A stretch of DNA of 11,476 bases. Source: Patescibacteria group bacterium. Lineage in GTDB: Bacteria; Patescibacteriota; Minisyncoccia; Minisyncoccales; CG1-02-41-26. Made by a program: the position numbers and the translations under genes. Below the pieces are notes generated by a model. It worked only from the letters and a program-made list of their open reading frames with translations. It made no database searches and was not told the DNA's origin. Shown piece by piece: positions 1 through 11,476 of the stretch (positions within the stretch are counted from its first letter, which is position 1; each line of letters starts with the position of its first letter). Where the stretch lies: assembly GCA_018830365.1 (NCBI GenBank), contig JAHJSK010000078.1:1-11476 (forward strand). The letters run 5' to 3'.

Positions 1-138
1 GAATTAATGGGATGGGATAAGGATACAGCAAAAGCGTTTGTAAAAGCAGAAAAAGAAGCAAAAGAAAAAAAAGAAAAAGAGGAGGAGAAAAAAGAAAAAG
101 AGGAAGAGGCAAACAAGGAAAAGGAAAATAAAACATAA
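1..138 (+). CDS. 3' end of an upstream gene (partial; start is outside the window). Lys/Glu-rich low-complexity tail ...WDKDTAKAFVKAEKEAKEKKEKEEEKKEKEEEANKEKENKT*
   Basis: Frame 1 is open from the window edge to TAA at 136-138, checked codon by codon. The listed minus-strand ORF 4..252 (poly-F/L) is the mirror image of this purine-rich coding run. P1 starts 15 nt downstream, so the layout is operon-like. Confidence 0.4.
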   Translation, partial: ELMGWDKDTAKAFVKAEKEAKEKKEKEEEKKEKEEEANKEKENKT

Positions 139-152
139 GTGTAAATAAAAAT

Positions 153-575
153 ATGTTTCAAGAACCAATTCAAAAAGAAAATTTATCCGACACTTCAGAT
201 TTAATAAGCTCCGAAGACATTGCTTTAATTCTTTCAGCAATTTGCGTGTCAAGCGGCATAGAACAAGAGGAGGAAATTGAAAAAGTGTCTTATCAAGTTG
301 CCCGAGTTTTATTTAACGACTTGCCGTCTGAATTGCTCGCCAAATCTTTAAATGAAAACGAAGGTTTTTCTTTGGAAATAGCTGAAACAATTGCTCAAAA
401 AGCCGACCGCTATATTTTTTCGCAAATAGAAAAATCCGTTTCAAATGAAGAATCGGCCGTGCCAGATGAAGAACCTTTTTCAGAAAAATCCGAAATCATT
501 GAAAGCCCTATGGCTGAAAATCCTTTAACCAAAAACCCTCCAAAAGATGATGTTTATCGCGAACCAATAGAATAG
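153..575 (+). CDS. Small acidic protein P1 (140 aa), paralog of P2 (2575..3066). The C-terminal tail is ...DDVYREPIE
   Basis: ATG..TAG ORF with no signal peptide or TM segment. The core VARVLFNDLPSELLAKSLNENEGFSLEIAETIAQKADRYIF aligns with P2 VGNVLMGLFPPENFLASLQVELNIEKEKSQNIFQEINRFIF. The last 30 nt (545-574) match the 3' end of P2 at 29 of 30 positions. Confidence 0.6.
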   Translation: MFQEPIQKENLSDTSDLISSEDIALILSAICVSSGIEQEEEIEKVSYQVARVLFNDLPSELLAKSLNENEGFSLEIAETIAQKADRYIFSQIEKSVSNEESAVPDEEPFSEKSEIIESPMAENPLTKNPPKDDVYREPIE

Positions 576-588
576 AAGGCATTAACAT

Positions 589-636
589 AATTTTCAATTT
601 TCAAGCACCAATTTACAATCAATTTTCAATTTTCAA
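589..636. repeat. Two copies of the 16-mer AATTTTCAATTTTCAA (589-604 and 621-636) flanking GCACCAATTTACAATC. The stretch 596-614, AATTTTCAAGCACCAATTT, recurs at 6816-6836 with one mismatch.
   Basis: Direct reading of the sequence, with positions indexed by hand. Confidence 0.6.
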
Positions 637-699
637 AATCCTAAACAAAAGTTTAAAAATTTTTGTTTACTTTCCTCTCGCTTTGCTTCGCTTGATAAT

Positions 700-740
700 A
701 AAAAAGGAGGGACACTGATGTATCCCCCCCTTGTATCCTG
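700..740 (-). terminator. Intrinsic terminator for the minus-strand SPFH gene. The same hairpin also reads as a hairpin on the + strand downstream of P1.
   Basis: The minus strand reads AAGGGGGGGAUACAUCAGUGUCCCUCCUUUUUUUAUUAUC. This gives a 9-10 bp stem with two G-U pairs followed by a U7 tract, beginning about 10 nt after the TAA stop (complement of 747-749). Confidence 0.5.
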
Positions 741-746
741 CTGGAT

Positions 747-1991
747 TTATTGGGTTTTAGTAATCGTACTCCCAACTTTCAGAATGTTCTGCACCTCGGC
801 TATCGCTCCTGAAAAATTTCCGCCTTTCCATTCAACCACTGTTCCAATTTCGCGATCCAAATAAAATTCAACTAATTGGTCAGTCTTACTAACAGCTTCT
901 TCTTCGGTGAGTTTTGGTTGCTCTTCCTTCAATCGGTTCAATGTTTGGAGATAAATCCCAACTATTTTTTCCGCGTCTGCTTTGGCTTTTTTCCTCGCTG
1001 CGTTTGCAAGGTTTCCTTGGATGATTTCCTCTTGAGCACTCTCATAGACCGCTTGTCTTTTTTTGAGTACTTCGGGCGACCATACAAAGTTGGGGAAAAT
1101 TATTCGTGTAGTTTCAAGCCCGTATCCATTTATCGCCTTTTCAACATCTGATTTTTCATCTACTTTACCCGCAATGTCCTCTTTCCAATCTTTGCCAACA
1201 TTTTTTTTCTGTCCATCGCCAAAAAAATCCTTTATTTCCAGGTTTCTAAAAAGGGTGTTAATAGCGGTCTCGGCTTTTGCTCGAATCGCAACCTGGTAGT
1301 TTTGTGTTTCGTATACCGCGCGGTAGACATTTTTTCTTATTTCTTTCTCTTTTTTTTCTTCAATGTCGCTCGTGGTGTCATTTGCATTTGGGTCAATATC
1401 ATCCAGGATTTTAATCCCCCAGAGAGCCCCTGGCAAAGTCACTGTTCCGCCCCCTTTCATATCAAGTTCATTTCTACTTTTCTCTCCTTCGTCATTTTTT
1501 TTTGGCAAAAAGAGTTCAATGAAATGTTCTTGTGTGCTTATTATGTTCCCACTCATAACCCATGGAACAAGAAATTTTGGGCCTGGTCCTTCAATCTTCC
1601 AGAAAGCTCCACAAACCGTTGTAACCAGCCGCTGTTTTTCTTGGATTTGCGCAAACCATTCCCGTAAAAAGCACACTATCACAATTCCAACAACAAGCCA
1701 CAAAGCCCATTGCCACCACCAGCCTGTCTGACAAAACCAAAAAGGCGCGCATGCGTACACAAGGGCAATCACGCAAACAAGAAAATAGCTGAAGAATGCC
1801 ACTTTTCCAACCCACGGTTCCGGCTCTGGCAATTTAAACTCTTTCTCCTTTGCCACTTTTCCCCGCGGCTTTGATTCTGGCAATCCAAGCTTCTTTTTCC
1901 TTTCCTCCTTTTTCATTTTTTTCGCCAACACCGCCCGAATCACCCAAGCAACGAAAATCAAAATCCCTGTCAAAATTATAATCCAAAACAT
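747..1991 (-). CDS. SPFH/band-7 (stomatin/prohibitin/HflK-like) domain membrane protein, 414 aa, with three N-terminal TM segments
   Basis: Complete ATG..TAA ORF. The revcomp of 1992-2006 gives UGGAGGUGAuuuagaAUG, a strong SD with a 6-nt spacer. TM helices are MFWIIILTGILIFVAWVI, VAFFSYFLVCVIALVYACAPFWF and WWWQWALWLVVGIVIVCFL. The SPFH-like entry motif is GAFWKIEGPGPKFLVPWVMSGNIISTQEHFIEL. A later alanine-rich coiled segment (EEIIQGNLANAARKKAKADAEKIVG) is typical of the band-7 C-terminal region. The family assignment is by eye. Confidence 0.6.
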   Translation of the reverse strand: MFWIIILTGILIFVAWVIRAVLAKKMKKEERKKKLGLPESKPRGKVAKEKEFKLPEPEPWVGKVAFFSYFLVCVIALVYACAPFWFCQTGWWWQWALWLVVGIVIVCFLREWFAQIQEKQRLVTTVCGAFWKIEGPGPKFLVPWVMSGNIISTQEHFIELFLPKKNDEGEKSRNELDMKGGGTVTLPGALWGIKILDDIDPNANDTTSDIEEKKEKEIRKNVYRAVYETQNYQVAIRAKAETAINTLFRNLEIKDFFGDGQKKNVGKDWKEDIAGKVDEKSDVEKAINGYGLETTRIIFPNFVWSPEVLKKRQAVYESAQEEIIQGNLANAARKKAKADAEKIVGIYLQTLNRLKEEQPKLTEEEAVSKTDQLVEFYLDREIGTVVEWKGGNFSGAIAEVQNILKVGSTITKTQ

Positions 1992-2159
1992 TCTAAATCA
2001 CCTCCAATATAATTGCATTGTGGGGAAGCATTGCTTCCTTCAACGCAATATTTTTAAAAATCTGGCATCTGTTTAATTTTATTCCAGACGCTTGATTACT
2101 GCCTACATTATAACAGAGCATTTTTAATTGTCAAGTTTTTAAGCGTGATTTTAATTTGT

Positions 2160-2211
2160 AAAAATCCTGTCCCTTATTCCAGCGATCGCGGTTTTAAGAG
2201 ACAGGATTTTT
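2160..2211. repeat. Hairpin/inverted-repeat element A. The arms are AAAAATCCTGTC (2160-2171) and GACAGGATTTTT (2200-2211), enclosing 28 nt that contain GCGATCGCGGTTTTA.
   Basis: Perfect 12-bp inverted repeat, verified base by base. It is homologous to element B (2285-2332). It has an A-run on the 5' side and a T-run on the 3' side, so it looks terminator-like in both directions. Confidence 0.7.
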
Positions 2212-2284
2212 GCAATAAATTAGTTTTGATAGAAATTTTATGGAGGTCTGACCTATGTAATTTTGAATCTGTATAAATTTAGAA

Positions 2285-2332
2285 AAATCCTGTCGGTTAA
2301 ACAGGCGATCGTGGTTTTAACCGACAGGATTT
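2285..2332. repeat. Hairpin/inverted-repeat element B. The arms are AAATCCTGTCGGTTAAA (2285-2301) and TTTAACCGACAGGATTT (2316-2332), with a 14-nt loop CAGGCGATCGTGGT.
   Basis: Perfect 17-bp inverted repeat. It shares AAAAATCCTGTC...GCGATCG(C/T)GGTTTTA...GACAGGATTT with element A, 124 bp upstream. Confidence 0.7.
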
Positions 2333-2497
2333 ATTTTCAAACGAAACGAGAGAAATAAAAATTCATTTTTTAAAAAATGAGCTCCGTAATATTTATGCCA
2401 TGGCATTATTATTACCTATGGTGATAAATTAAACATATTTAATAATAAACCCCGGACATTTGGAAGGGGTGTATTTTTGTTGCGCGAGTGGTTGCTG

Positions 2498-2538
2498 TTT
2501 TTGGGGTTGCTTTTCGCGTGTTCGCGTATTATTATTAG
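2498..2538 (+). promoter_or_regulatory. Promoter module R1. It has -35 TTGCTT (2507-2512), a 17-nt spacer, and -10 TATTAT (2530-2535). It also contains a small CGCG-UGUU-CGCG hairpin. It is predicted to drive P2, whose ATG is at 2575.
   Basis: The 41-bp block TTTTTGGGGTTGCTTTTCGCGTGTTCGCGTATTATTATTAG repeats at 3416-3462 with two substitutions. The sigma70-like spacing was verified by counting. Confidence 0.45.
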
Positions 2539-2574
2539 TGTTATTAGCTAATAGATTTTTAGTAAAAAGTATTT

Positions 2575-3066
2575 ATGTTGCAACAATATAATCAAAAAGA
2601 ACTCCAAGGATTGTTTGAAGTTTTACCCGAAGAATTAAAAGACGCTATTTTATCTGAACAAACCGCGGAAACAATCAGAAAAATTTGTGAACGGTATAAA
2701 ATAGAAGAAAGAAATATGTCTGAAATAGCAGGATTAGTTGGCAATGTTTTAATGGGTCTTTTCCCGCCGGAAAATTTTCTTGCATCTCTTCAAGTGGAGT
2801 TAAATATAGAAAAAGAAAAATCGCAAAATATTTTTCAAGAGATAAATCGTTTTATTTTCTTTCCTGTAAAAAATTTTCTTATAGAATTTTATCCAGAAAT
2901 TAAATTCGCTCATGGTGGCAAAGTCGCGGACGAAAGCATTGCCATAGAAGAAAAATTTGCGAAAGAAAAATTAGAAAAAATTGAATCGGAAAAAGCCGCG
3001 CCAATAGAGGAAAGCAAGGAGACAAAAAAAACAGGAGATGATGTTTATCGTGAACCAATAGAATAA
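2575..3066 (+). CDS. Small acidic protein P2 (163 aa), paralog of P1. The C-terminal tail is ...GDDVYREPIE
   Basis: ATG..TAA ORF with no signal peptide or TM segment. It has a K/E-rich C-terminal region and a core homologous to P1. The 3' 30 nt (3037-3066) are nearly identical to P1 545-574. Confidence 0.65.
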   Translation: MLQQYNQKELQGLFEVLPEELKDAILSEQTAETIRKICERYKIEERNMSEIAGLVGNVLMGLFPPENFLASLQVELNIEKEKSQNIFQEINRFIFFPVKNFLIEFYPEIKFAHGGKVADESIAIEEKFAKEKLEKIESEKAAPIEESKETKKTGDDVYREPIE

Positions 3067-3073
3067 AAAAAAG

Positions 3074-3098
3074 ATTTACAGAGGCCCGTCCTCTGTAA
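3074..3098. repeat. GC-rich palindrome family member 1: tTTACAGAGG-cccgt-CCTCTGTAAa
   Basis: 10-bp perfect inverted repeat with a 5-nt loop. It has outer TTAC/GTAA ends like members 2-5. Confidence 0.7.
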
Positions 3099-3142
3099 AA
3101 ACCTCTGCGAAAAGGTGAATTTGATAATTAAAAAAGATTTAG

Positions 3143-3167
3143 CATTACACCGTCCCGGACGGTGTAA
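3143..3167. repeat. GC-rich palindrome family member 2: aTTACACCGTCC-c-GGACGGTGTAAt (25-bp perfect palindrome). An identical copy lies at 3535-3559.
   Basis: Verified base by base. Confidence 0.75.
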
Positions 3168-3186
3168 TTTAATAATTCAGGGAATA

Positions 3187-3239
3187 AAACAATGTATCGC
3201 CGCCAGGCGGCGATACATTGCCTGGCGGCGATACATTGT
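3187..3239. repeat. Composite element made of a 31-bp perfect palindrome CAATGTATCGCCGCC-a-GGCGGCGATACATTG (3189-3219) followed by an 18-bp tandem duplicate CCTGGCGGCGATACATTG (3220-3237). The left arm can therefore pair with either of two right arms.
   Basis: 3202-3219 and 3220-3237 are direct repeats with one mismatch. 3187-3206 is exactly complementary to 3220-3239. The element is preceded by the direct-repeat motif AATTCAGGGAATAAAAC (3173-3189), which recurs at 3324-3340. Confidence 0.7.
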
Positions 3240-3280
3240 TGATTGCCTATAAACAAAGGAGTGGTTTACGGAAAATAAAA

Positions 3281-3307
3281 TTTTTACGGAGGTCAGACCT
3301 CCGTAAA
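3281..3307. repeat. GC-rich palindrome family member 3: ttTTACGGAGGTC-a-GACCTCCGTAAaa (27-bp perfect palindrome)
   Basis: Verified base by base. A degenerate relative, ATGGAGGTCTGACCTATGTAA, sits at 2241-2261. Confidence 0.7.
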
Positions 3308-3340
3308 ACTATTCCGAAATTTTGAATTCAGGGGATAAAA

Positions 3341-3363
3341 CTTACAGAGGTCCGACCTCTGTA
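3341..3363. repeat. GC-rich palindrome family member 4: TTACAGAGGTC-c-GACCTCTGTAA (23-bp perfect palindrome)
   Basis: Verified base by base. It is preceded by AATTCAGGGGATAAAAC (3324-3340). Confidence 0.7.
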
Positions 3364-3415
3364 AAAAGATTTTAATTTAATTTTAATTGAATTGAATTAT
3401 TCACAAGGAAACTCT

Positions 3416-3462
3416 TTTTTTGGGGTTGCTTTTCGCGTCCTCGCGTATTATTATTATTATTA
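3416..3462 (+). promoter_or_regulatory. Promoter module R2, the second copy of R1. It has -35 TTGCTT (3426-3431), a 17-nt spacer, and -10 TATTAT (3449-3454). It is predicted to drive a roughly 200-nt leader and the T4SS-like operon starting at 3660.
   Basis: Direct repeat of 2498-2538. Only the loop of the CGCG hairpin differs (TCCT versus TGTT). Confidence 0.4.
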
Positions 3463-3534
3463 GTTTTATTATTTTAAAATTGATTGATGCAATAGCGCAA
3501 AGGGTTTGTTAAGCATAATGTTTTAAAATTAATT

Positions 3535-3559
3535 TTTACACCGTCCCGGACGGTGTAAA
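3535..3559. repeat. GC-rich palindrome family member 5, an exact duplicate of member 2 (TTACACCGTCC-c-GGACGGTGTAA), located inside the predicted leader
   Basis: Verified base by base. Confidence 0.75.
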
Positions 3560-3609
3560 GCTATTTGAAAAAATATAGCGGAGGGTTGACCAATATAACC
3601 TGCATTCGC

Positions 3610-3646
3610 CTTGTCTCGCTAAGCGAGGCAAGCGGGGCTTTATTTG
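3610..3646 (+). terminator. Terminator-like hairpin, a possible attenuator, 14 nt upstream of the 3660 start codon. It reads CUUGUCUCGC-uaa-GCGAGGCAAG followed by CGGGGCUUUAUUUG.
   Basis: 10-bp stem with one G-U pair and a 3-nt loop, followed by a U-rich tract. Its position inside a leader rather than after a gene argues for conditional termination. Confidence 0.4.
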
Positions 3647-3659
3647 ATAGATAACCATT

Positions 3660-4070
3660 ATGGAATTTAAAGTGCCAAAATTTTTAGAAAGAGAATCAAA
3701 ATTTTTTAGCATCTTAACCTTCAAGCAATTAGCTTGCGTCGGGATTATTGGTCTTGTTTTATTTATTTTGTATTATATTGTTCCCAAGTCAACCTTTTTC
3801 TTTTTAGTCGTTTTTTTCGGAGGAGGAAGCATGGTTTTAATGATTGTCAATATTGAGGGAGTGCCTCTTTACCAATTGGCCGGACATTCTTTGAATTATT
3901 TGCTTTCTTCTAAAAAATTTATTTGGTCAAGAAAAGAAAAGCCATTTATTAAATTATTAAACAAAGAAAGAGAGGAAGCGAAAGAAAAAAAAGCAGACGC
4001 GCCTTTAAAGATTTCCCCGGAAAGCAGCTTGGGCAAATTATCGTCCCGAATTGAGCGAGGGGTGCAGTAG
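3660..4070 (+). CDS. PrgI/VirB3-like small 2-TM T4SS protein (136 aa)
   Basis: The N-terminus MEFKVPKFLERESKFFSILTFKQL resembles the VPK...F.LT.RQL opening of PrgI/VirB3-family proteins. It is followed by two TM helices (ACVGIIGLVLFILYYIV and FFFLVVFFGGGSMVLMIVNI). It lies directly upstream of a VirB4-family gene, which is the canonical virB3-virB4 arrangement. No SD. Confidence 0.55.
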   Translation: MEFKVPKFLERESKFFSILTFKQLACVGIIGLVLFILYYIVPKSTFFFLVVFFGGGSMVLMIVNIEGVPLYQLAGHSLNYLLSSKKFIWSRKEKPFIKLLNKEREEAKEKKADAPLKISPESSLGKLSSRIERGVQ

Positions 4071-4074
4071 ATAA

Positions 4075-4264
4075 CGCAAAACTCAAAGCGCAAAACGCAA
4101 AACTAAAACGAAAATGTTAAAACTAACGCAAAATATTGATTCTGTTATTTTTCGTTGAGAGCAAGTAAATTTGAGGCTGAATTTCCTAAGGGATTGGGGA
4201 AACATCAAAAAAAGATTTAAGTTTTAAAATAAACTTTGAGTTTTGCGTTTTGAGTTTTGCGTTT
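4075..4264. repeat. Imperfect inverted repeats of GCAAAAC-family simple sequence. Left arm 4075-4110, right arm 4235-4264 (tandem TTTTGAGTTTTGCG x2). They bracket a roughly 125-bp AT-rich spacer and abut the VirB4-N start codon.
   Basis: GCAAAACTCAAA (4076-4087) is exactly complementary to TTTGAGTTTTGC, which is present twice in the right arm. Confidence 0.6.
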
Positions 4265-4270
4265 AATCGT

Positions 4271-4930
4271 ATGTCTCAATCATTTTCACAACAATTTTTA
4301 GAAATAGCTGACATCAAAGAAGGCGTGCTGGTTTTAAAAAACAGAGCTATGCGGGGCGTGCTAATGGTGTCCTCAATAAATTTTGATTTAAAATCAGAAG
4401 ATGAGCAAAAAGCTGTTATTTACCAATTTCAGGGATTTTTAAATTCCTTAGATTTTTCCTGTCAAATTATTGTTCAATCAAGAAAATTAAACATCACTGG
4501 TTATTTTGACAAATTAAAAGAATTGGAAAGGGCTCAAGAAAATGAACTTTTAAAAATTCAAACCACTGAATATCGGAAATTTATTGAGGAAATGGTAGGC
4601 GGAGGAACGATTATGAGAAAAGAATTTTTACTCGTTATTCCTTTTACTCTTTTTGAAACCAAGGGAATAATTGGCGGGAGCATGAGCGCTCTTAAAGGAG
4701 TTTTGGGAAAAAAAGAAAATTTTTTCGGATTAGGAGAAGAAAATTTCCAAAGATGCCGAGACCAACTTTATCAAAGAATGGAGTTTGCGGCTATTTGTTT
4801 GCGGCGATGCGGATTAACATCCATCCCTTTGACAACGCCAGAATTAATTGAACTTTTTTGGAGCCTTCATCATCCAAAAGAAGCGGAGTATGGTTATTAT
4901 CCAGAGATATTGCCAGAAATGATCAAATGA
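4271..4930 (+). CDS. virB4: VirB4-family N-terminal domain encoded as a separate ORF (220 aa from ATG 4271; the ORF track extends it to TTG 4250 inside the repeat)
   Basis: The stretch FLEIADIKEGVLVLKNRAMRGVLMVSSINFDLKSEDEQKAVIYQFQGFLNSLDFSCQIIVQS matches the conserved N-terminal block of Gram-positive-type VirB4/TcpF/PrgJ/ConE proteins. The ORF is in the same frame as the next one and ends with TGA. 220 aa plus 595 aa gives about 820 aa, the usual VirB4 length. Confidence 0.55.
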   Translation: MSQSFSQQFLEIADIKEGVLVLKNRAMRGVLMVSSINFDLKSEDEQKAVIYQFQGFLNSLDFSCQIIVQSRKLNITGYFDKLKELERAQENELLKIQTTEYRKFIEEMVGGGTIMRKEFLLVIPFTLFETKGIIGGSMSALKGVLGKKENFFGLGEENFQRCRDQLYQRMEFAAICLRRCGLTSIPLTTPELIELFWSLHHPKEAEYGYYPEILPEMIK

Positions 4931-4966: not shown

Positions 4967-6754
4967 ATGTTTTCTTTTTTAAAGAAAAAAAATACTATTG
5001 AAGAATTGAAAATTGAACCAGAAGAATTTTTTGTTCAGGACCTTATTGCGCCACCTTCAATAGAAATATCAGGGAACCGTTTAAAATTGGGAGAAAGATT
5101 TTCCAAGACCTTTTTTGTTTTTTCTTATCCGCGATATCTTTCCACTGGCTGGATGTCTCCAGTAATCAATCTCAATTATCCTCTGGATATTTCTTTTCAT
5201 ATTCATCCCATAGACACCAATGAAATTTTAAAAAAACTGCGAAAAAAATTAACAGAAGTGCAAGCAGAATTAATGGAAAGAGAAGAAAAGGGACTGATCC
5301 GCGACCCGACCTTAGAAACAGCGTACAATGACATTGAAACACTAAGGGACTCTCTTCAGACAGTTCAAGAAAGAGTTTTTCAATTAGGAATTTATGTAAC
5401 TATTTACGCGGACAATGAAAAAGAACTAAGCGAGGTTGAAACTAAATTAAGGTCCATATTTGAGCCCCGGCTAATTTATGTTAAGCCCGCGCTATTAAGA
5501 GAAAAAGAGGGTTTTACTTCCACCGCGCCATATGGATTAGACGAAATTATGGTTCACACTCCAATGAACACGGAACCCTTGTCCAGCATTTTTCCTTTTA
5601 TCTCTCCTGATCTAAGCGCAAATGAAGGAATTTTGTATGGTTTGAATAAGCACAACAATTCTTTGGTTCTTTTTGATCGCTTTACTTTGGAAACAGGAAA
5701 TATGTGCGTTTTTGGCAAGTCCGGCTCTGGCAAAAGCTTTTTCTGCAAGTTGGAGACCTTAAGATATTTAATGCAAGGAGTGGATTGCATTGTTATTGAC
5801 CCGGAAAACGAATATGAATGGCTCGCTAACGCGGTTGGCGGGTCTTTTTTCAAAATTTCCTTAACTTCTCCTCATCATTTAAATCCTTTTGATTTGCCTG
5901 CGCCAAAAGAAGATGAAAAAGCGGAAGATGTTTTAAGGGCTAATGTGATAAACTTGGTGGGACTTTTTAGAATAATGTTAAGCAATTTGACTCCGCAGGA
6001 AGACGCTATCATAGACAGGGCTATTGCTGAAACATATTATGCCCGAGACATTACCGCCGATTCGGACCCAGCCACATGGAAAGACAAAACACCTTTAATG
6101 TCGGACTTTCAGACAATTTTGGAAGGAATGGAAGGAGCCGAGTCCTTGGTGGAGCGCGTAAGAAAATTTACCACTGGAAGCTATGGCCAATTTTTTAACA
6201 ACCCCTCTAATGTTTCTGTGGACAAAAACCTTGTTGCATTTGGGATTAGAGATATGGAAGAAGAATTAAGGCCAATGGCAATGTTTCTCATTTTAAGATA
6301 TATTTGGAATAATGTAAAAGCAGAATTAAAAAAAAGAATTTTGTTAGTGGACGAGGCATGGTGGTTGATGCGGACAGAAGATGGCGCTTCTTTTCTTTTC
6401 GGCATTTGCAAGAGGTCTAGAAAATATTGGTTAGGCGTTTCCACTATTACGCAGGACATTAGCGATTTTATGAAATCAACTTATGGCCAGCCAATTATTA
6501 CCAACTCGTCATTGTTGCTTTTGATGAAGCAATCGCCAGCTGCCATTGATTACGCGCAAAAAACATTTAATTTAACTGAGCAGGAAAAATTTCTTTTATT
6601 GGAATCCGATGTGGGGGAGGGGATTTTCCTTGCGGGCAAAAAAAGAGTGGCTTTGAAAGTAATCGGTTCTTACGCGGAAGAGCAAATTATTACCAGCGCT
6701 CCGGAACAAGTGGAAAAAATAAAACAAGCTAAGAAGAGATTGAATAACATTTGA
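4967..6754 (+). CDS. virB4: VirB4/TraC/TrbE-family T4SS ATPase, middle and C-terminal domains (595 aa)
   Basis: Walker A is VFGKSGSGKSFF. Walker B is the VirB4-typical ILLVDEAWWL (DEAW). The family-typical downstream block is RSRKYWLGVSTITQDISDF. The middle-domain pattern is FFVFSYPRYLSTGWMSPVINLNYPLDISFHIHPID. Confidence 0.85.
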   Translation: MFSFLKKKNTIEELKIEPEEFFVQDLIAPPSIEISGNRLKLGERFSKTFFVFSYPRYLSTGWMSPVINLNYPLDISFHIHPIDTNEILKKLRKKLTEVQAELMEREEKGLIRDPTLETAYNDIETLRDSLQTVQERVFQLGIYVTIYADNEKELSEVETKLRSIFEPRLIYVKPALLREKEGFTSTAPYGLDEIMVHTPMNTEPLSSIFPFISPDLSANEGILYGLNKHNNSLVLFDRFTLETGNMCVFGKSGSGKSFFCKLETLRYLMQGVDCIVIDPENEYEWLANAVGGSFFKISLTSPHHLNPFDLPAPKEDEKAEDVLRANVINLVGLFRIMLSNLTPQEDAIIDRAIAETYYARDITADSDPATWKDKTPLMSDFQTILEGMEGAESLVERVRKFTTGSYGQFFNNPSNVSVDKNLVAFGIRDMEEELRPMAMFLILRYIWNNVKAELKKRILLVDEAWWLMRTEDGASFLFGICKRSRKYWLGVSTITQDISDFMKSTYGQPIITNSSLLLLMKQSPAAIDYAQKTFNLTEQEKFLLLESDVGEGIFLAGKKRVALKVIGSYAEEQIITSAPEQVEKIKQAKKRLNNI

Positions 6755-6806
6755 CAATTGACAATTGACATTTGACAATTGACAATTGACATTTGACATT
6801 TGACAA
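6751..6806. repeat. Heptanucleotide microsatellite (TTGACAW)x8, with units TTGACAA or TTGACAT. It overlaps the VirB4 stop codon (TGA inside the first unit) and lies about 100 bp upstream of the pilin-like gene.
   Basis: Eight perfect 7-bp units counted by index from 6751 to 6806, then TTAG. Each unit carries the sigma70 -35 consensus hexamer. Confidence 0.85.
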
Positions 6807-6836
6807 TTAGCAAATAATTTTCAAGCTCCAATTTTT

Positions 6837-6908: not shown

Positions 6909-8066
6909 ATGAATCAATTTTCAAACAACACTAAAAAAATATTAATCGGTTTTTTATTGGTCGGATTTGTTTTTTCGTCATCGTTGGTTTTGGCTGCGCA
7001 AGCCCAGCAAACGCGGACTTCTGTTTTTGAAATAAATTATCCGACAATACCCGGCGCGTACACGCCTCAACAAATTTCATCGCGGCCAGAATCAGAGCGC
7101 TTGCCTCTTTACATTAATTATTTTCTCCGTTTGTTTTTTATTCTTGCTATTGGAATTGCCGCGGCAATGGTTCTTTTTGGCGGGGTTCTTTATTTGGCTT
7201 CTCGAGGAATGGACAAGCCAGCGCTTTTGATTTTGGCAAATGCCCGCATACAACAAGGGCTCTTGGGCCTTTTAATCATTGTGTCCGCGTATTTGGTTTT
7301 GGCTGTTATTAATCCTCAATTATTGGTCTTTAAGACAATGATACCGACCGCGCCCGGAGACATTACTGTTGGCGAACCTGCTTTTAACAACAAAGTTCCT
7401 TTTGTAAAAGCGCCCATTGGCTGTTTAATGGATAATTTTTTAAAATCCCTTATGTCAACAACAACTGCGTCAACAACTTGCAATGGAAACAATTATACTC
7501 AACCAAATGTCTACAAAATTGAACTTCCTCTTTGGGAGGCATTAAAACTTTTAGATTGCGCGCAAACATTGTCAGAAGAGATTGTGGTTTTATTGGAAGA
7601 TTGCAAGTGCGGGAAGTCAATATATCATGTAGCAAGACCATTTGGCTCTGACAAAACAACTTGCGTGGGGGGAGTAGACGCGTTAGCTCGAATAGGGAAA
7701 TGCGATGAAAATTGTAAAAATTGCGGAGAAGGGGAAAAGGTTTGGGGAGGTACCATATATATATGTCCCACTTCAACCTTAGCAATAAAGAGAGATGAAC
7801 TCGCGGGTATTATGAGCAAATTAAAAGGAAGCGAGTTTAAAACAAATTTTGAGCAAATAGAGTTGATTAGAAAAACATTGGGAACGAACTCTGCTGAGTA
7901 TTTAACCCGGGAATTGCAAGGATATAGTTTTCAAGAGGATTTTAATGAGCAGGCAAAAAAATTAAAAGAACAGGGATACGATGTTGCGGAGACAATAACT
8001 TCGCAATATCCTGAAAAATGCAAAATTGACCCTTTTACTTTTTATGCGCCGATCAAGGGAGAATAG
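6909..8066 (+). CDS. Secreted membrane protein (385 aa) with a signal peptide, a VirB2/TrbC pilin-like pair of hydrophobic helices, and a Cys-rich C-terminal domain
   Basis: The signal peptide is MNQFSNNTKKILIGFLLVGFVFSSSLVLAAQA|QQ. The two hydrophobic helices FLRLFFILAIGIAAAMVLFGGVLYLAS and GLLGLLIIVSAYLVLAVINP are separated by a short loop. The C-terminal domain has more than 10 Cys (CKCGKS..CVGG..CDENCKNCGEGE..ICPTS). No SD. Confidence 0.6.
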   Translation: MNQFSNNTKKILIGFLLVGFVFSSSLVLAAQAQQTRTSVFEINYPTIPGAYTPQQISSRPESERLPLYINYFLRLFFILAIGIAAAMVLFGGVLYLASRGMDKPALLILANARIQQGLLGLLIIVSAYLVLAVINPQLLVFKTMIPTAPGDITVGEPAFNNKVPFVKAPIGCLMDNFLKSLMSTTTASTTCNGNNYTQPNVYKIELPLWEALKLLDCAQTLSEEIVVLLEDCKCGKSIYHVARPFGSDKTTCVGGVDALARIGKCDENCKNCGEGEKVWGGTIYICPTSTLAIKRDELAGIMSKLKGSEFKTNFEQIELIRKTLGTNSAEYLTRELQGYSFQEDFNEQAKKLKEQGYDVAETITSQYPEKCKIDPFTFYAPIKGE

Positions 8067-8144: not shown

Positions 8145-11100
8145 ATGTTTCACAATTCCCACATAAAAAAAATAATAATCAGTGGCTTATTGCTTGGATT
8201 GATTTTTCAATCCAGCATCTCTTTTGCCGTGGCAACAAATCCTTTGCCAAATCCTTATCCAGAAGAACTGCTTAAACACAACACAAATGTGCTTTACGAA
8301 AACGAAAGATTTAGTTTGTTTTTGGTTTTGAGCCGTTTGTCATTGGAAGAGCTTCAAGAAATGCTGAAAGAATGTTTGGCTATGGCTTTTCGTACCGAAG
8401 GAGAATTTAAAATGAGCACAACAACACTTAGCGCAACTATTGACCAATCCTTTAAAGATGGATTGTCTAATTTTTTAGCTGAGTATTTGAGTCCGGGCAG
8501 TGATGATTATGCCGAAGCGTTTTATAAAAAATTAAAAGATGAAATAAATGAAAAATATGAAACATGCACAAGCACAGAAGCGGAAAGACCGGATTGCATT
8601 CAAAAATGCGTGAACCAAGAAGGAATTTCCGAAACAGAGTGCGCGAGAAAATGCAGGAAAACAAGCAAAGCAATTTCCGACCTTTTGGCTGATTTTTTAA
8701 CTGGGGATTTAAGATCTAAACTTCCAAGTGAAATTCAAAAAATTCTTAATGAGCGATTAAGAGATGTTATTTTTTCAGATAAAGTGAACGCTATTTTAAG
8801 CACAAGCACTTTGGCTGTTTTAAACAAGGCGCTCGGCGAAGCTTTGAATAAAACTATTGTTGATGAAGTTCCTGCTTTAAAAGAAACCTTGGGCAGAAAA
8901 GTAACAAGTTATATGGCGCCTTCGCTTGTAAAGCCGCTGGAAAAAATAGATCGACTTTTATCATTTAAAATAGAGGATTTAAAAACATATATAGACAATA
9001 AAATAGCGAGCACTACCGCGACAATGGCCGCTAAATTAAAAGAAGCGGTGACAAAGACCAAAAATACCGCAAACGCGGGGACAAATCTTGATAGAACAGG
9101 GTGTTGTAACATTGCTTATTTTAGGGGCGAACATTGGTATTGGAGCTTCACAGAAAGAAAATGCAAGTACGCAGACAGAGCTTATATAAACGATCACTGG
9201 AGTACAATTTTATTAGGGATTAGAGATTGCGGCACCAAGGATACCAATATAATACCCGGGGAAACTATGTCCCCGCCTCAAAATCAGATAGATTTTTGCG
9301 AGATGTCATCGGATTCCTGCTGGCAGAATAGCGTGTGCGCGCAATGCGACAAAGCGGAAACATGGAAAGAAGTATTTAATATTGGGCAATGGTGGAGCTC
9401 GTTCACTAAAAATTTATTCACTGCTTTGCTCGCTATGCCTCAGCAAATAATGCTCGCTATGATTGATGTTGCGGCTCACACTTTAACAGAGTACGCCCAG
9501 GTCTGGGTGGAAGACGAACTCATTGCTCCGCTCCAGCCCTATTTTAATAAATTCGCGGAGTTTCAGAAAAAACTCCATAAAGCGCTGAATTACACGGTTG
9601 CGGATCTTTTGCCTAAACAAGCAAAAGTTTTATTGACAAGCAACGCTGACCAGATATTGGACATGATATGCAAGGGCGCACAAAAAGGCGGGATAGATAT
9701 AGGATCAGAAGAAGAAGAAATCAAAAAAAATAGAGAGGCGGCTTGTAATACTTACAAAGAACTTCACCAAGACCTCTTAAGCCAATTAGCAGACACCGGG
9801 CATTTGGGCAAGGAAATCAAGGACGCTTTAAACAGCACGGTTTTTAAATTACTTCCGTCAAATTTGCAACAACTTCTCGCAAGCTCTACCGCTGAGCTTC
9901 TCTGGCCTGAAATAACTAATATTAAAAAATTAATTTTAGGAACGCCAAAGCAAATTATTTGCGGCGAGCTTTTTAATAAAAATTTTGAAGTAAAAATTGA
10001 CGACACTAATTCATCGGTTTTTGAAAAATGCACTACAGCGGGACCAATAGGATTAAGAACAACGCAAGGCACGATTGGACTCCTTCCTTACATAGACAAA
10101 ACCAGTACTTTTTGGACAGGACTAAACAGCGGACTCAAAGAAAAATACGCTATTTCCTGCCCCATTATTTGGTATGTGTGTCAAAACCCTCTTTCCCCAT
10201 GGGGCGCAAAGGTTGGAGATGTGCTCGTTAATATTATAAGTAGTCAATGCGCGAGCATAGATAAAAAAACAAGCAACAAATGCGGCTGGAACAATTATAG
10301 CGCGCCTGCAAACGCAAATTTGCCTGACGAGTTTAAGCCCGGGTGCGCGGCTTGTAAAACTTTAAATTCTTCTCTGGCATTTAGTTTGTTTAAATATGGA
10401 ATGGAGCAAAAATATGGCACCAGCACTGCGGCTGTATCTCCAACTAACCCAAGACTAAATGAGCGCGCGGCTTATCAATGGCTTTATGTGGCTTTTCCGC
10501 TTTTAAGAGACAGCGCCAACATTTCAAATTTTAATGGCGGGACAAAGCAAGTGGCAGTAGTGGCAAGAGGATTTAAAGAAGCAGAGTGGGATGATAATGT
10601 CCCAAATAGCACAAGCAGTATTGTCCAAGAAATAAAATATTATTCTGGCACTAGTGAACTTCCTCCATCAGCCACTGCGTTGGCGCAAACTTTTATAACT
10701 TGGATGACCAATGAAGCGTCTGGCAAAGAAATTCTTACTTCCATTCCATTGGGCGTGATCAAGCCATTTAATCCCGGGGAGGCAACATTGCTAAGAGACG
10801 CTGGCAAAGGTTCTAAAAATGAAGAGTTCCTTGCTTACACGCCTTATGAGTTTTTGGAACAAGAATTGTGCCGCAAAGTAATCGCGGATTTTAAAAAAGA
10901 TTATTCCACTTCTACCATAGAAGCGATTATGGCAACTGAAGCAAATAAATTAGCCCAAATAAGCGGGATTCCTTATTCAGTTGAAAGCTTGCGACATACA
11001 ACTATGGCGCAAGCGGAACAAATTCTTTTGAGCAATGACGAAATTGACGCTGAACGCAAAGCCAGTTATCTTACTTGTTTTGCGTTGGACAAAAAACCAG

Positions 11101-11476
11101 CCGCGCTATTTGGTTTGGACCAAAAACTGATTGAATATGTAAGGCCTGAACCGTACAAAGTTCTTTTTACTTTAATCAAAGAAAAATTAAAAGAGGACGA
11201 AAGACCAACCCTTTTAAATAAACTTTTAATTTATCTTTATAGATGGAACCCTGTTGACCTTGCTTGCGCGATATTGACGAAAAAATCATATGACGCAGAC
11301 GAGCGAGCTGTTATTGATAATGCTTCAAGCACTCCAGCTGAGATAGCCGCTGCGCAAAAAAGAATAGAAAGCAAAAAAACAATGACTGATTTTGCCTGCA
11401 ATTTCTTGGGCACTACTATGGGAGATCGGATAAAAAAATATTTGCCAAAAAAGGAGATGATTTGTCTTATCGCGGA
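8145..11476 (+). CDS. Giant secreted Cys-rich protein, more than 1110 aa. The 5' end is complete and the 3' end runs past the window edge.
   Basis: Frame 3 is open from ATG 8145 to the window end. It was checked codon by codon at 9051-9120 and 10200-10260, where other frames have TAG/TAA. The signal peptide is MFHNSHIKKIIISGLLLGLIFQSSISFA|VA. There are many Cys clusters (CIQKCVNQ..ECARKCRK, GCCNIAYF, CEMSSDSCWQNSVCAQCD, CAACKTL). It is mostly hydrophilic. All listed minus-strand ORFs in this span are antisense artefacts. Confidence 0.65.
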   Translation, partial: MFHNSHIKKIIISGLLLGLIFQSSISFAVATNPLPNPYPEELLKHNTNVLYENERFSLFLVLSRLSLEELQEMLKECLAMAFRTEGEFKMSTTTLSATIDQSFKDGLSNFLAEYLSPGSDDYAEAFYKKLKDEINEKYETCTSTEAERPDCIQKCVNQEGISETECARKCRKTSKAISDLLADFLTGDLRSKLPSEIQKILNERLRDVIFSDKVNAILSTSTLAVLNKALGEALNKTIVDEVPALKETLGRKVTSYMAPSLVKPLEKIDRLLSFKIEDLKTYIDNKIASTTATMAAKLKEAVTKTKNTANAGTNLDRTGCCNIAYFRGEHWYWSFTERKCKYADRAYINDHWSTILLGIRDCGTKDTNIIPGETMSPPQNQIDFCEMSSDSCWQNSVCAQCDKAETWKEVFNIGQWWSSFTKNLFTALLAMPQQIMLAMIDVAAHTLTEYAQVWVEDELIAPLQPYFNKFAEFQKKLHKALNYTVADLLPKQAKVLLTSNADQILDMICKGAQKGGIDIGSEEEEIKKNREAACNTYKELHQDLLSQLADTGHLGKEIKDALNSTVFKLLPSNLQQLLASSTAELLWPEITNIKKLILGTPKQIICGELFNKNFEVKIDDTNSSVFEKCTTAGPIGLRTTQGTIGLLPYIDKTSTFWTGLNSGLKEKYAISCPIIWYVCQNPLSPWGAKVGDVLVNIISSQCASIDKKTSNKCGWNNYSAPANANLPDEFKPGCAACKTLNSSLAFSLFKYGMEQKYGTSTAAVSPTNPRLNERAAYQWLYVAFPLLRDSANISNFNGGTKQVAVVARGFKEAEWDDNVPNSTSSIVQEIKYYSGTSELPPSATALAQTFITWMTNEASGKEILTSIPLGVIKPFNPGEATLLRDAGKGSKNEEFLAYTPYEFLEQELCRKVIADFKKDYSTSTIEAIMATEANKLAQISGIPYSVESLRHTTMAQAEQILLSNDEIDAERKASYLTCFALDKKPAALFGLDQKLIEYVRPEPYKVLFTLIKEKLKEDERPTLLNKLLIYLYRWNPVDLACAILTKKSYDADERAVIDNASSTPAEIAAAQKRIESKKTMTDFACNFLGTTMGDRIKKYLPKKEMICLIA

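Follow-up and report, generated by a model that had tools for sequence, protein, structure and literature searches.

The Patescibacteria type IV secretion system (T4SS) is essential for epibiotic growth (PMC10633639, PMC12102498); no other T4SS is known that its bearer cannot do without. Its gene cluster holds no recognisable coupling protein, and a distant T4CP homologue found elsewhere in the genome was not essential (PMC10633639, PMC12102498). The cargo of the system, and the way in which cargo is selected without a recognisable coupling protein in the cluster, are open questions (PMC10633639, PMC12857230). The stretch of DNA analysed here, 11,476 nucleotides from a Patescibacteria group bacterium and hereafter called the window, carries the same VirB6/TrbL-like, PrgI/VirB3, TrsD-like, VirB4 and pilin-like genes as the MPF-FATA-like T4SS cluster of Patescibacteria (CPR) (PMC10633639; PMC12102498). 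It also carries two genes, P1 and P2, of a family that is absent from the T4SS components listed in the text of PMC10633639 (Wang et al. 2023) and of PMC12102498 (Quinonero-Coronel et al. 2025). Both proteins end in DDVYREPIE, a C-terminal peptide that is the hallmark of a large family without annotation in the Patescibacteria T4SS gene cluster.

The window opens with the 3′ end (1..138, forward strand) of a gene for a VirB6/TrbL_3-like membrane protein of 701 amino acids, which starts upstream of the window (gene 2152-4257 of L001) and has tblastn matches to the PF19590 TrbL_3 genes of L005, L052 and L056. P1 (153..575, forward strand) and P2 (2575..3066, forward strand) are separated by a reverse-strand gene (747..1991) for an SPFH/Band_7 membrane protein (PF01145, E=4.9e-8); an opposite-strand Band_7 gene also lies between TrbL and the family gene in L005 and L012. 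Downstream of P2, all on the forward strand, are a PrgI/VirB3-like gene (3660..4070; PF12666, E=4.6e-7), a TrsD/TraC-like gene homologous to the VirB4 N-terminal domain (4250..4930; PF26593, with weak NCBIfam matches to TrsD, 7e-5, and to VirB4_plasma, 1.8e-7), a VirB4-type ATPase gene (4967..6754; PF19044 P-loop_TraG, 4.6e-24, and also AAA_10 and DUF87) and a gene for a secreted protein of 385 amino acids (6909..8066). The latter has no direct Pfam match and is related to T4SS_pilin-domain proteins by tblastn to gene 1882-2799 of L004 (PF18895). No relaxase or coupling protein gene was found near these T4SS genes.

The typical order of such loci is VirB6/TrbL-like gene, family gene, PrgI/VirB3, TrsD-like gene and VirB4; in the window it is P1 that follows the TrbL-like gene, and P2 that has PrgI, the TrsD-like gene and VirB4 downstream of it. 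Almost all informative loci place the family gene between the VirB6-like and the VirB3-like one. The first-pass annotation had placed both tail genes beside a T4SS-like block, and this linkage was confirmed when checked across genomes and metagenomes. The PrgI, TrsD-like and VirB4 genes lie just downstream in 39 of 43 species-level loci, three of the other four ending at a contig edge, and of 50 metagenome loci that reach 5 kb or more, 47 have T4SS matches. Furthermore, a TrbL-like gene is found upstream of the family gene in most genome loci. The gap from the family stop codon to PrgI has a median of 42 nt, is at most 20 nt in 43 of 104 loci and often measures 1-5 nt. A few members lie away from PrgI/VirB4, for example those of L009 and L056 and P1 itself.

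P1 encodes 140 amino acids (pI 4.1) and P2 163 (pI 4.8), both without a transmembrane segment; P2 is a canonical family member and P1 a diverged paralogue. The two open reading frames exist as first described, with cores about 32% identical (BLASTP, E=7e-10) and the C-terminus as the sole long identical run. On the forward strand, the tail is encoded at 546..572 in P1 (stop codon TAG, 573-575) and at 3037..3063 in P2 (TAA, 3064-3066). The near-identity of the 30-nt ends also stood, with 29 of 30 positions identical and one mismatch between 545-574 and 3036-3065, the P2 interval being corrected by one nucleotide from 3037-3066. In codon register 26 of 27 nt are the same, and the single difference is the synonymous change CGC/CGT.

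Whether this identity is more than chance would give turns on the null model that is chosen. The excess is clear if the comparison is with random DNA, a second match to the 30-mer arising in none of 200 dinucleotide shuffles. It is weaker against codon-aware nulls: given the identical peptide and the codon usage of the contig (genes of the window and three further L001 genes), the probability of at least 26 of 27 matches is about 0.008; the two tails share 8 of 9 codons, against 30 of 43 at identical core residues (Fisher p=0.23); and 6.7% of pairs of DVYREPIE tails from other loci, a few near-duplicate strains included, differ at no more than 1 of 24 nt. The amino-acid conservation of the tail is therefore highly significant, and the extra nucleotide identity of the two tails inside the window is only marginal. 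The proposal that the tail is conserved above the diverged cores thus holds for the peptide, but at the nucleotide level the excess is slight.

Members of the family are small, acidic and soluble proteins, in which a helical domain of about 100 residues is followed by a disordered, fast-evolving linker rich in Pro, Lys and Glu and then by D-x-Y-R-E-[P/S]-[I/V]-E-COOH. The AF2 model of P2 has a helical bundle at residues 7-110 (pLDDT around 90) and disorder from 111 to 163; that of P1 has a helical domain at 12-100 (pLDDT above 90 over about 21-90) and disorder from 102 to 127. The linker falls below a pLDDT of 50 in both models, and the tail is also of low confidence. A library clustered at 50% identity contains 6,742 representatives of the family if the cut-off is E≤1e-3, and 2,876 if it is E≤1e-10; the family is so far restricted to genomes labelled Patescibacteria and unlabelled metagenome contigs. 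All database members are labelled ‘hypothetical’. No Pfam or NCBIfam model covers them, a sequence search of the PDB gave nothing below E=0.1, fold comparison returned no informative match, an Rfam search of the window gave no match, and a literature search with the motif strings found nothing relevant. The longer members consist of tandem N-domains or duplicated tails, and no fusion to another T4SS subunit was found among them. PrgF and PrgG of pCF10 (MPF-FATA), which are small and encoded upstream of PrgH-PrgI, were rejected as homologues (hhalign probability 0.1% and 0.2%); PrgF is a two-TM protein, unlike the tail-bearing family.

The functional constraint on the tail that had been suspected was upheld at the level of the peptide. 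D, Y, R and E are invariant across a 17-sequence family alignment, and 158 of 169 members have D-x-Y-R-E no more than 12 residues from the C-terminus. Among these 158 carriers the distance from D to the C-terminus is exactly 8 residues in 128, and 23 have 1-4 extra residues beyond the motif. Orthologues without the tail are essentially absent: all 16 homologues of P2 carry it. Orthologues of P1 were found as well (P0018, 88%; P0019, 60%; P0020, 35%), and the order TrbL, P1, reverse-strand Band_7 recurs at P0018 and P0019. The likeness of ‘EPI’ in the tail to the EPIYA motif of CagA-type effectors was dismissed as a coincidence, since the residues come in another order, the motif stands at the terminus and bacteria serve as the hosts.

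The codons of the tail, on the other hand, are free. Orthologous tails use GAT/GAC, TAT/TAC, CGN/AGR, CCN, ATH and GAA/GAG without restriction, so that at the nucleotide level 23 DVYREPIE tails are spelled in 18 different ways and 34 DPYREPIE tails in 32. In an orphan tail copy of L004, 8 of 27 nt are changed and only one residue. RNA folding leaves the tail unpaired. With codons free and the tail retained in the divergent P1 lineage, selection acts, to judge from the sequences, on the tail peptide. The DNA-level site offered by the first-pass annotation, including its shufflon-type form, is refuted because the synonymous sites of the tail vary freely across orthologues; an RNA-level site is not supported.

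We consider it rather probable that the tail is a docking peptide, which tethers an accessory and, on this view, cytoplasmic family protein to a conserved part of the T4SS as its putative partner. It would act as a protein-level short linear motif at a fixed distance from the free carboxylate. Held out by the flexible linker, the peptide would bind in a conserved pocket of a T4SS component, the prime candidate being the VirB4 or TrsD-like ATPase module, and the helical domain so tethered at the cytoplasmic base of the machine may be a subunit of accessory, adaptor or regulatory type. That the two tails are nearly identical in nucleotides would follow from identical peptides written in the preferred codons of the genome, probably reinforced by an older exchange of 3′ ends between the paralogues. 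It is a bolder and doubtful proposal that the family is the missing cytoplasmic adaptor, whose tail plugs into VirB4/TrsD and replaces the coupling protein, and which either recruits cargo by means of its helical domain or is itself the single universal substrate to be exported.

Possible traces of such an exchange lie behind the two genes. The 3′ flank of P1 (576..701, forward strand) is homologous to the DNA behind the P2 tail in the sibling strains L002 and L003, where the P2 protein is 100% identical and its tail is followed by TAG and about 130 nt that can be aligned to this flank. Positions 545-701 of the window match 719-861 of L002 at 79.6% over 157 nt including the tail (blastn, E=2e-34); in both siblings the P1-like homology begins at the tail, whose upstream linkers show no relation to each other. 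The RNA of the P1 flank is not significantly structured (z=-0.7). In the strain of the window the P1-flank-like spacer of the siblings, 117 nt long, is replaced by a strain-specific, hairpin-rich one (3067..3643, not assigned to a strand), with a hairpin at 3075-3098 (z=-3.9). The same spacer holds, at 3414-3463, a copy of the module (2495..2547, forward strand; TTGCTT-N17-TATTAT-like) that lies 28 nt before the P2 start and is 100% conserved in L002 and L003. The two copies are 90% identical as repeat family D9 and 88.7% over 53 nt by blastn. What had been called a duplicated promoter module is thus a real repeat of about 50 nt and about 89% identity, but a sigma-70 consensus scan does not call it a promoter, and to name it one is a guess.

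The P1-flank-like DNA behind the P2 tail of the sibling strains makes it plausible that the two 3′ ends exchanged DNA and that these genes are prone to recombination at their 3′ ends. The gene-conversion tract suggested earlier is plausible to this extent, but the evidence comes from outside the window only. That a process at the DNA level accounts for the shared tail itself, either because gene conversion or recombination homogenises the paralogue 3′ ends or because the tail is a recombination site, seems to us quite unlikely. The noncoding flank is indeed too similar to date from a duplication that has left the coding cores no more than 32% identical, other lineages (L004/L050, L066 and L036) have orphan or duplicated 3′ gene ends, and the low probability of the tail match under window-wide codon usage points the same way. 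However, P1/P2 homology inside the window ends at the stop codon, the tails do not share significantly more codons than identical residues of the cores do, and the tail is the most diverged part of the L004 repeat. Synonymous variation across the family rules out a conserved DNA site; the copies are direct and not inverted, and the records for the 17-kb contig list no recombinase domain. Such a process could account for the additional matches in nucleotides, but it leaves the invariance of the peptide across thousands of lineages unexplained.

Two further readings accept the peptide as the selected unit. T4SS signals are commonly C-terminal, and the tail may be a translocation signal, with the family as a dedicated, universal T4SS substrate (effector or pilot) whose peptide is recognised without a coupling protein. 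We hold this to be unlikely. The strong linkage of the family to the T4SS is in its favour; so is a system whose cluster lacks a recognisable coupling protein or relaxase and which may export proteins (PMC10633639). We scanned metagenomes with a degenerate DNA pattern for D-x-YREPIE-stop and assigned the hits with an HMM that excludes the tail. The scan returned 120 matches, and 103 of the 115 ORFs long enough are family members; the remaining ORFs are mostly truncated by the contig, several of those lying directly upstream of PrgI-TrsD-VirB4. No other ORF with the tail was found in 56 family loci, and viral contigs gave 0 matches. Because the tail is found essentially on one family and not on a range of cargo or on several unrelated substrate families, the general secretion tag of the first-pass annotation is disfavoured. 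Known T4SS signals, moreover, are charge-based and degenerate in sequence, and do not take the form of an invariant octapeptide. The conservation of the N-domain is that of a machine part and not of a diversifying effector. In Bartonella Beps and relaxases a BID domain and a charged tail form a bipartite T4SS signal, but the similarity of the N-domain to BID is no better than to dozens of unrelated helical bundles. As to how the tail is recognised, the evidence fits export and docking equally. Action in cis, as a C-terminal degron or as a peptide that arrests the nascent chain or pauses termination and so tunes expression of the downstream PrgI-TrsD-VirB4 genes, would suit the fixed distance from motif to stop, the PrgI gene often only a few nucleotides away and a conserved peptide with free codons; it is nevertheless very improbable. 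P1, P0002 and P0004 retain the tail though PrgI does not follow, the extra residues of some members are tolerated, and a spacer of 1-5 nt is too short for a regulated hairpin. A SecM/MifM/VemP-type arrest leader was rejected because of these copies that PrgI does not follow and because of the folded, conserved, soluble 100-residue domain, which has no hydrophobic segment and no signal or TM ‘sensor’ of that kind.

The tail-bearing family is a near-universal, unannotated gene inside the Patescibacteria T4SS cluster. Its invariant eight-residue C-terminal peptide gives a concrete experimental handle and can be used as a bioinformatic marker for such clusters, and the result corrects the reading of the shared tail as a DNA site. 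If the family were indeed the missing adaptor, it would add to the T4SS superfamily a substrate-recognition module of a new kind.

The comparison with known systems sets these points in relief. The shufflon of IncI plasmids (Rci/sfx sites, 3′ ends of pilV) is built of inverted DNA repeats conserved as DNA, with an adjacent recombinase. The family resembles it in that T4SS-associated genes carry a repeated sequence where their coding parts end (3′), but its repeats are direct, synonymously variable and without a recombinase. The tip of SSB (…DDDIPF-COOH) and the C-terminal peptide of FtsZ offer another parallel, a folded core followed by a linker that is disordered and a docking peptide, conserved, at the terminus. 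The family is built of the same three parts, the terminal peptide being much better conserved than the linker, and to this extent the SSB-like docking tail proposed at first was appropriate. The analogy with SSB fails on the fold because AF2 gives a helical N-domain instead of an OB fold, and no SSB Pfam match was found in the window; the core is a helical bundle, neither OB nor tubulin-like, and D-x-Y-R-E-P-I-E is unrelated in sequence to either peptide. Within the T4SS itself, the C-terminal tail of the F-plasmid TraD reportedly docks into TraM, as Lu et al. are said to have described in 2008. TraD is a large membrane ATPase whose tail ends in Phe, whereas the family is small, soluble and without homology to it, and has no coupling protein nearby. 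The TraD-TraM pair nonetheless provides a precedent for a short acidic C-terminal peptide that makes a specific contact at the cytoplasmic face of a T4SS machine.

P1 (153-575, + strand, 140 aa) and P2 (2575-3066, + strand, 163 aa) are distant paralogues (32% identity, E=7e-10 by BLASTP), and both terminate with DDVYREPIE. The near identity of their 3′ ends over 30 nt, pointed out in the first-pass annotation, was confirmed: the 30-mer at 545-574 was found again at 3036-3065 with one mismatch, and a second match occurred in no shuffled window. The first copy lies exactly where it had been placed, and the second had been misplaced by one nucleotide. In codon register, the tails occupy 546-572 (+ strand, stop TAG) in P1 and 3037-3063 (+ strand, stop TAA) in P2, and share 26 of 27 nt, the sole difference being a synonymous CGC/CGT change. 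The linkers just upstream of the two tails are unrelated in sequence. The AF2 models of the two proteins are concordant: a helical bundle of ~100 residues (pLDDT ~90) gives way to a disordered region (pLDDT <50) in which the tail sits. Because both paralogues are acidic (pI 4.1 for P1 and 4.8 for P2) and carry no hydrophobic segment, they are soluble and presumably cytoplasmic. P1 represents a stable separate lineage: its orthologues at 88%, 60% and 35% identity all keep the tail (3/3), and the order TrbL, P1, Band_7 (− strand) is retained in the two closer ones (88% and 60%). The P1 position directly after TrbL is occupied by some P2-like orthologues.

P2 and P1 as queries retrieved exclusively hypothetical proteins of 130-165 aa from the databases, each ending in a variant of the tail peptide. 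In a 50%-identity clustered library, profile searching gave 6,742 family representatives at E≤1e-3, of which 2,876 reached E≤1e-10. No model for the family was found in Pfam or NCBIfam, and no relative by sequence search of the PDB. In an alignment of 17 sequences, no residue outside the N-domain is invariant except the tail's D, Y, R and E. The consensus of the 169 members in hand is D-[T/I/V/S/P]-Y-R-E-[P/S]-[I/V/L]-E-COOH; D-x-Y-R-E falls inside the last 12 residues in 158 of them, with the D exactly 8 residues from the C-terminus in 128 of these 158, and the 11 exceptions are mostly near-variants (DIYKE, NIYREE, DVYHE) or entries with a truncation or frameshift. Longer members result from tandem N-domains or duplicated tails, and none of them is fused to another T4SS part. 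Locus L036 (98-559) encodes a tandemly duplicated tail (…DKYREPIEKVTDKYREPIE); the other forms seen among this product and the family proteins P0052, P0021 and P0046 have two tails with a second linker between them, or two tandem N-domains and a single tail.

The gene order on the parent contig is TrbL_3/VirB6-like (701 aa), P1, Band_7 (opposite strand), P2, PrgI/VirB3-like, TrsD/TraC-like, VirB4, a pilin-like protein of 385 aa and a 1,497-aa protein. The latter (8173-11476, + strand) continues past the window end, hence its absence from the ORF list, and had no match in Pfam or NCBIfam. The T4SS linkage expected for tail-bearing genes holds across genomes, since PrgI, TrsD-like and VirB4 genes lie directly downstream of the family gene in 39 of 43 species-level genome loci; three of the four remaining loci end at a contig edge. 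A TrbL-like gene is found upstream in most of the 43 loci. From the family stop codon to PrgI, the median distance is 42 nt over 104 loci, 43 of which have ≤20 nt between the two. The named hosts are Paceibacteria-type Patescibacteria (among them Nealsonbacteria, Wildermuthbacteria and Paceibacterota) and MAGs labelled Saccharibacteria. The window cluster is the T4SS described for Patescibacteria. According to the available excerpts of PMC10633639, PMC12102498 and PMC12857230, this system is essential in Southlakia epibionticum and closest to monoderm MPF-FATA systems, and most Patescibacteria genomes encode neither relaxase nor coupling protein near virB4; the tail family is not named among the T4SS components in these excerpts. 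What is new here is a very large unannotated family that is syntenic with T4SS core genes and bears an invariant C-terminal peptide. Comparison with PrgF and PrgG of pCF10 ruled out both as the identity of the family. The VirB4 gene of one locus (L004, 10341-14132) is split by an intein that carries a LAGLIDADG homing endonuclease (product of 1,263 aa, Intein_splicing and LAGLIDADG_3); the same probably holds for L011, L024, L032 and L036, where the VirB4 tblastn match is shifted by ~2.5-3 kb.

We then considered whether selection acts on the nucleotides of the tail or on the peptide. Codon choice in the tail is free from one orthologue to the next (GAT/GAC, GTT/GTC/GTG, TAT/TAC, any of the six Arg codons, GAA/GAG, CCN, ATH): the 23 DVYREPIE tails come in 18 nucleotide versions, and the 34 DPYREPIE tails in 32. 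This comparison, selected beforehand in the first-pass annotation as the refuting test, rules out the DNA-level site that had been proposed. The shufflon-type site fails as well, the two copies being direct repeats and no recombinase being recorded on the 17-kb contig. At the RNA level, the tail was unpaired in folds, the flank was not significantly structured, and the window gave no Rfam match. With random codon choice from the contig's own usage, the chance of 26/27 identity is ~0.008; where P1 and P2 have the same residue, they also have the same codon in 30 of 43 cases in the core and 8 of 9 cases in the tail (p=0.23), and 6.7% of pairs of DVYREPIE tails from other loci are equally similar (over 24 nt). 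Hence, inside the window the nucleotide identity adds little beyond the same peptide and the same codon bias.

The suggested gene-conversion tract finds partial support in the sibling strains L002 and L003, contigs from other samples in which the P2 protein is 100% identical. There, the P2 tail ends at a TAG stop, and the 117-nt spacer that separates P2 from PrgI aligns with the P1 3′ flank (window 545-701 versus L002 719-861, 79.6% over 157 nt, E=2e-34). The homology starts at the conserved tail, the upstream boundary of the tract. Since a noncoding flank of this similarity cannot be left over from the ancient duplication, the two paralogues likely exchanged 3′-end DNA through gene conversion or recombination, or both took in the same 3′ module. 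Such a local exchange is likely, but secondary to the peptide-level reading. In the window strain, the flank is replaced from the stop codon on by ~575 nt of hairpin repeats (3067-3643), absent from L002/L003 and containing no credible ORF, so that P2 and PrgI are 593 nt apart here; a ~50-nt module just upstream of P2 (2495-2547) has its second copy inside this spacer (3414-3463). Two other loci (L004 and L050; L004 6757-8191) carry a HEPN/MNT (nucleotidyltransferase) toxin-antitoxin-like cassette directly behind the family gene, then an orphan direct repeat of the last ~150 nt of the gene. The repeat is ~95% identical up to the tail, which differs at 8 of 27 nt and in one residue only (DVYREPIE versus DVYREPVE); this suggests that the cassette came with a replacement 3′ end. 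Furthermore, L066 (1277-1361) contains an orphan P1-like linker-plus-tail, a 39-aa ORF without N-domain, with the same tail nucleotides as P1. Taken with the duplicated tail of L036, these rearranged ends show the 3′ end of the family gene to be recombination-prone, the peptide being restored again and again by selection.

Several other repeats were recorded. The window spacer contains the hairpin TTTACAGAGGnnnnnCCTCTGTAAA three times (3075-3098, 3284-3308, 3342-3365), ACACCGTCCCGGACGGTGT twice (3144-3167, 3536-3558; 28-nt arms 93% identical), a pair that could bound a 424-nt MITE-like unit, and a perfect hairpin with 21-nt arms (3188-3240). Intergenic repeats of the TTTACAAT/TTTTCAA type lie ahead of the orphan fragment of L066. 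A palindromic element of 57 nt (AAAATCCTGTC...GCGATCGC...GACAGGATTTT), which folds into a hairpin of very high stability (-27.9 kcal/mol, z=-7.4), is dispersed in at least five copies in the intergenic DNA of the contig in the manner of REP-like repeats (window 2153-2209 and 2276-2332; parent contig L001 41-95, 196-250 and 1652-1705). An inverted repeat of 29 nt (4073-4101/4235-4263, 93% complementary) brackets the unusually long spacer between the PrgI and TrsD-like genes. Behind the VirB4 stop codon come tandem 7/14-nt repeats (ACATTTGACAATTGACA..., 6747-6823), beside the motif AATTTTCAAGCTCCAATTT (6816-6834), also present in the P1 3′ flank (596-614). The sigma-70 consensus occurs in perfect form upstream of the Band_7 gene (TTGACA, 16 nt, TG-extended TATAAT; 2134..2107, − strand), as the only 12/12 match in positions 1-4300.

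The data support a T4SS-linked reading of the tail at the protein level. D-x-Y-R-E-P-I-E-stop had at least 120 matches in the metagenome collection. Among the matches listed, 115 ORFs were long enough to be tested, and 103 of these were family members by an iterated HMM with the tail removed; the other 12 were mostly cut by contig ends, several of those lying directly upstream of PrgI-TrsD-VirB4, and one match was a false positive. The tail had no match on viral contigs, and in 56 family loci no ORF besides the family genes carried it. If the tail were a general signal for T4SS secretion, diverse cargo would be expected to bear it, in degenerate form. Recognition of the tail for export is thus rather unlikely, given its confinement to one family among the matches listed; a cis-acting degron or arrest role seems very improbable. 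A lock-and-key docking motif would suit the tail better than a secretion signal, because it is invariant, family-exclusive, and a terminal octapeptide on a flexible linker. We therefore favor a tethering peptide, inferring both docking and partner: the tail would tether the family protein by binding a highly conserved T4SS part, for which the VirB4/TrsD module is the obvious candidate. If docking is true, the family would consist of T4SS accessory proteins that bear a docking motif at the C-terminus, akin to the C-terminal peptides of SSB and FtsZ in the logic of a docking peptide, not in homology.
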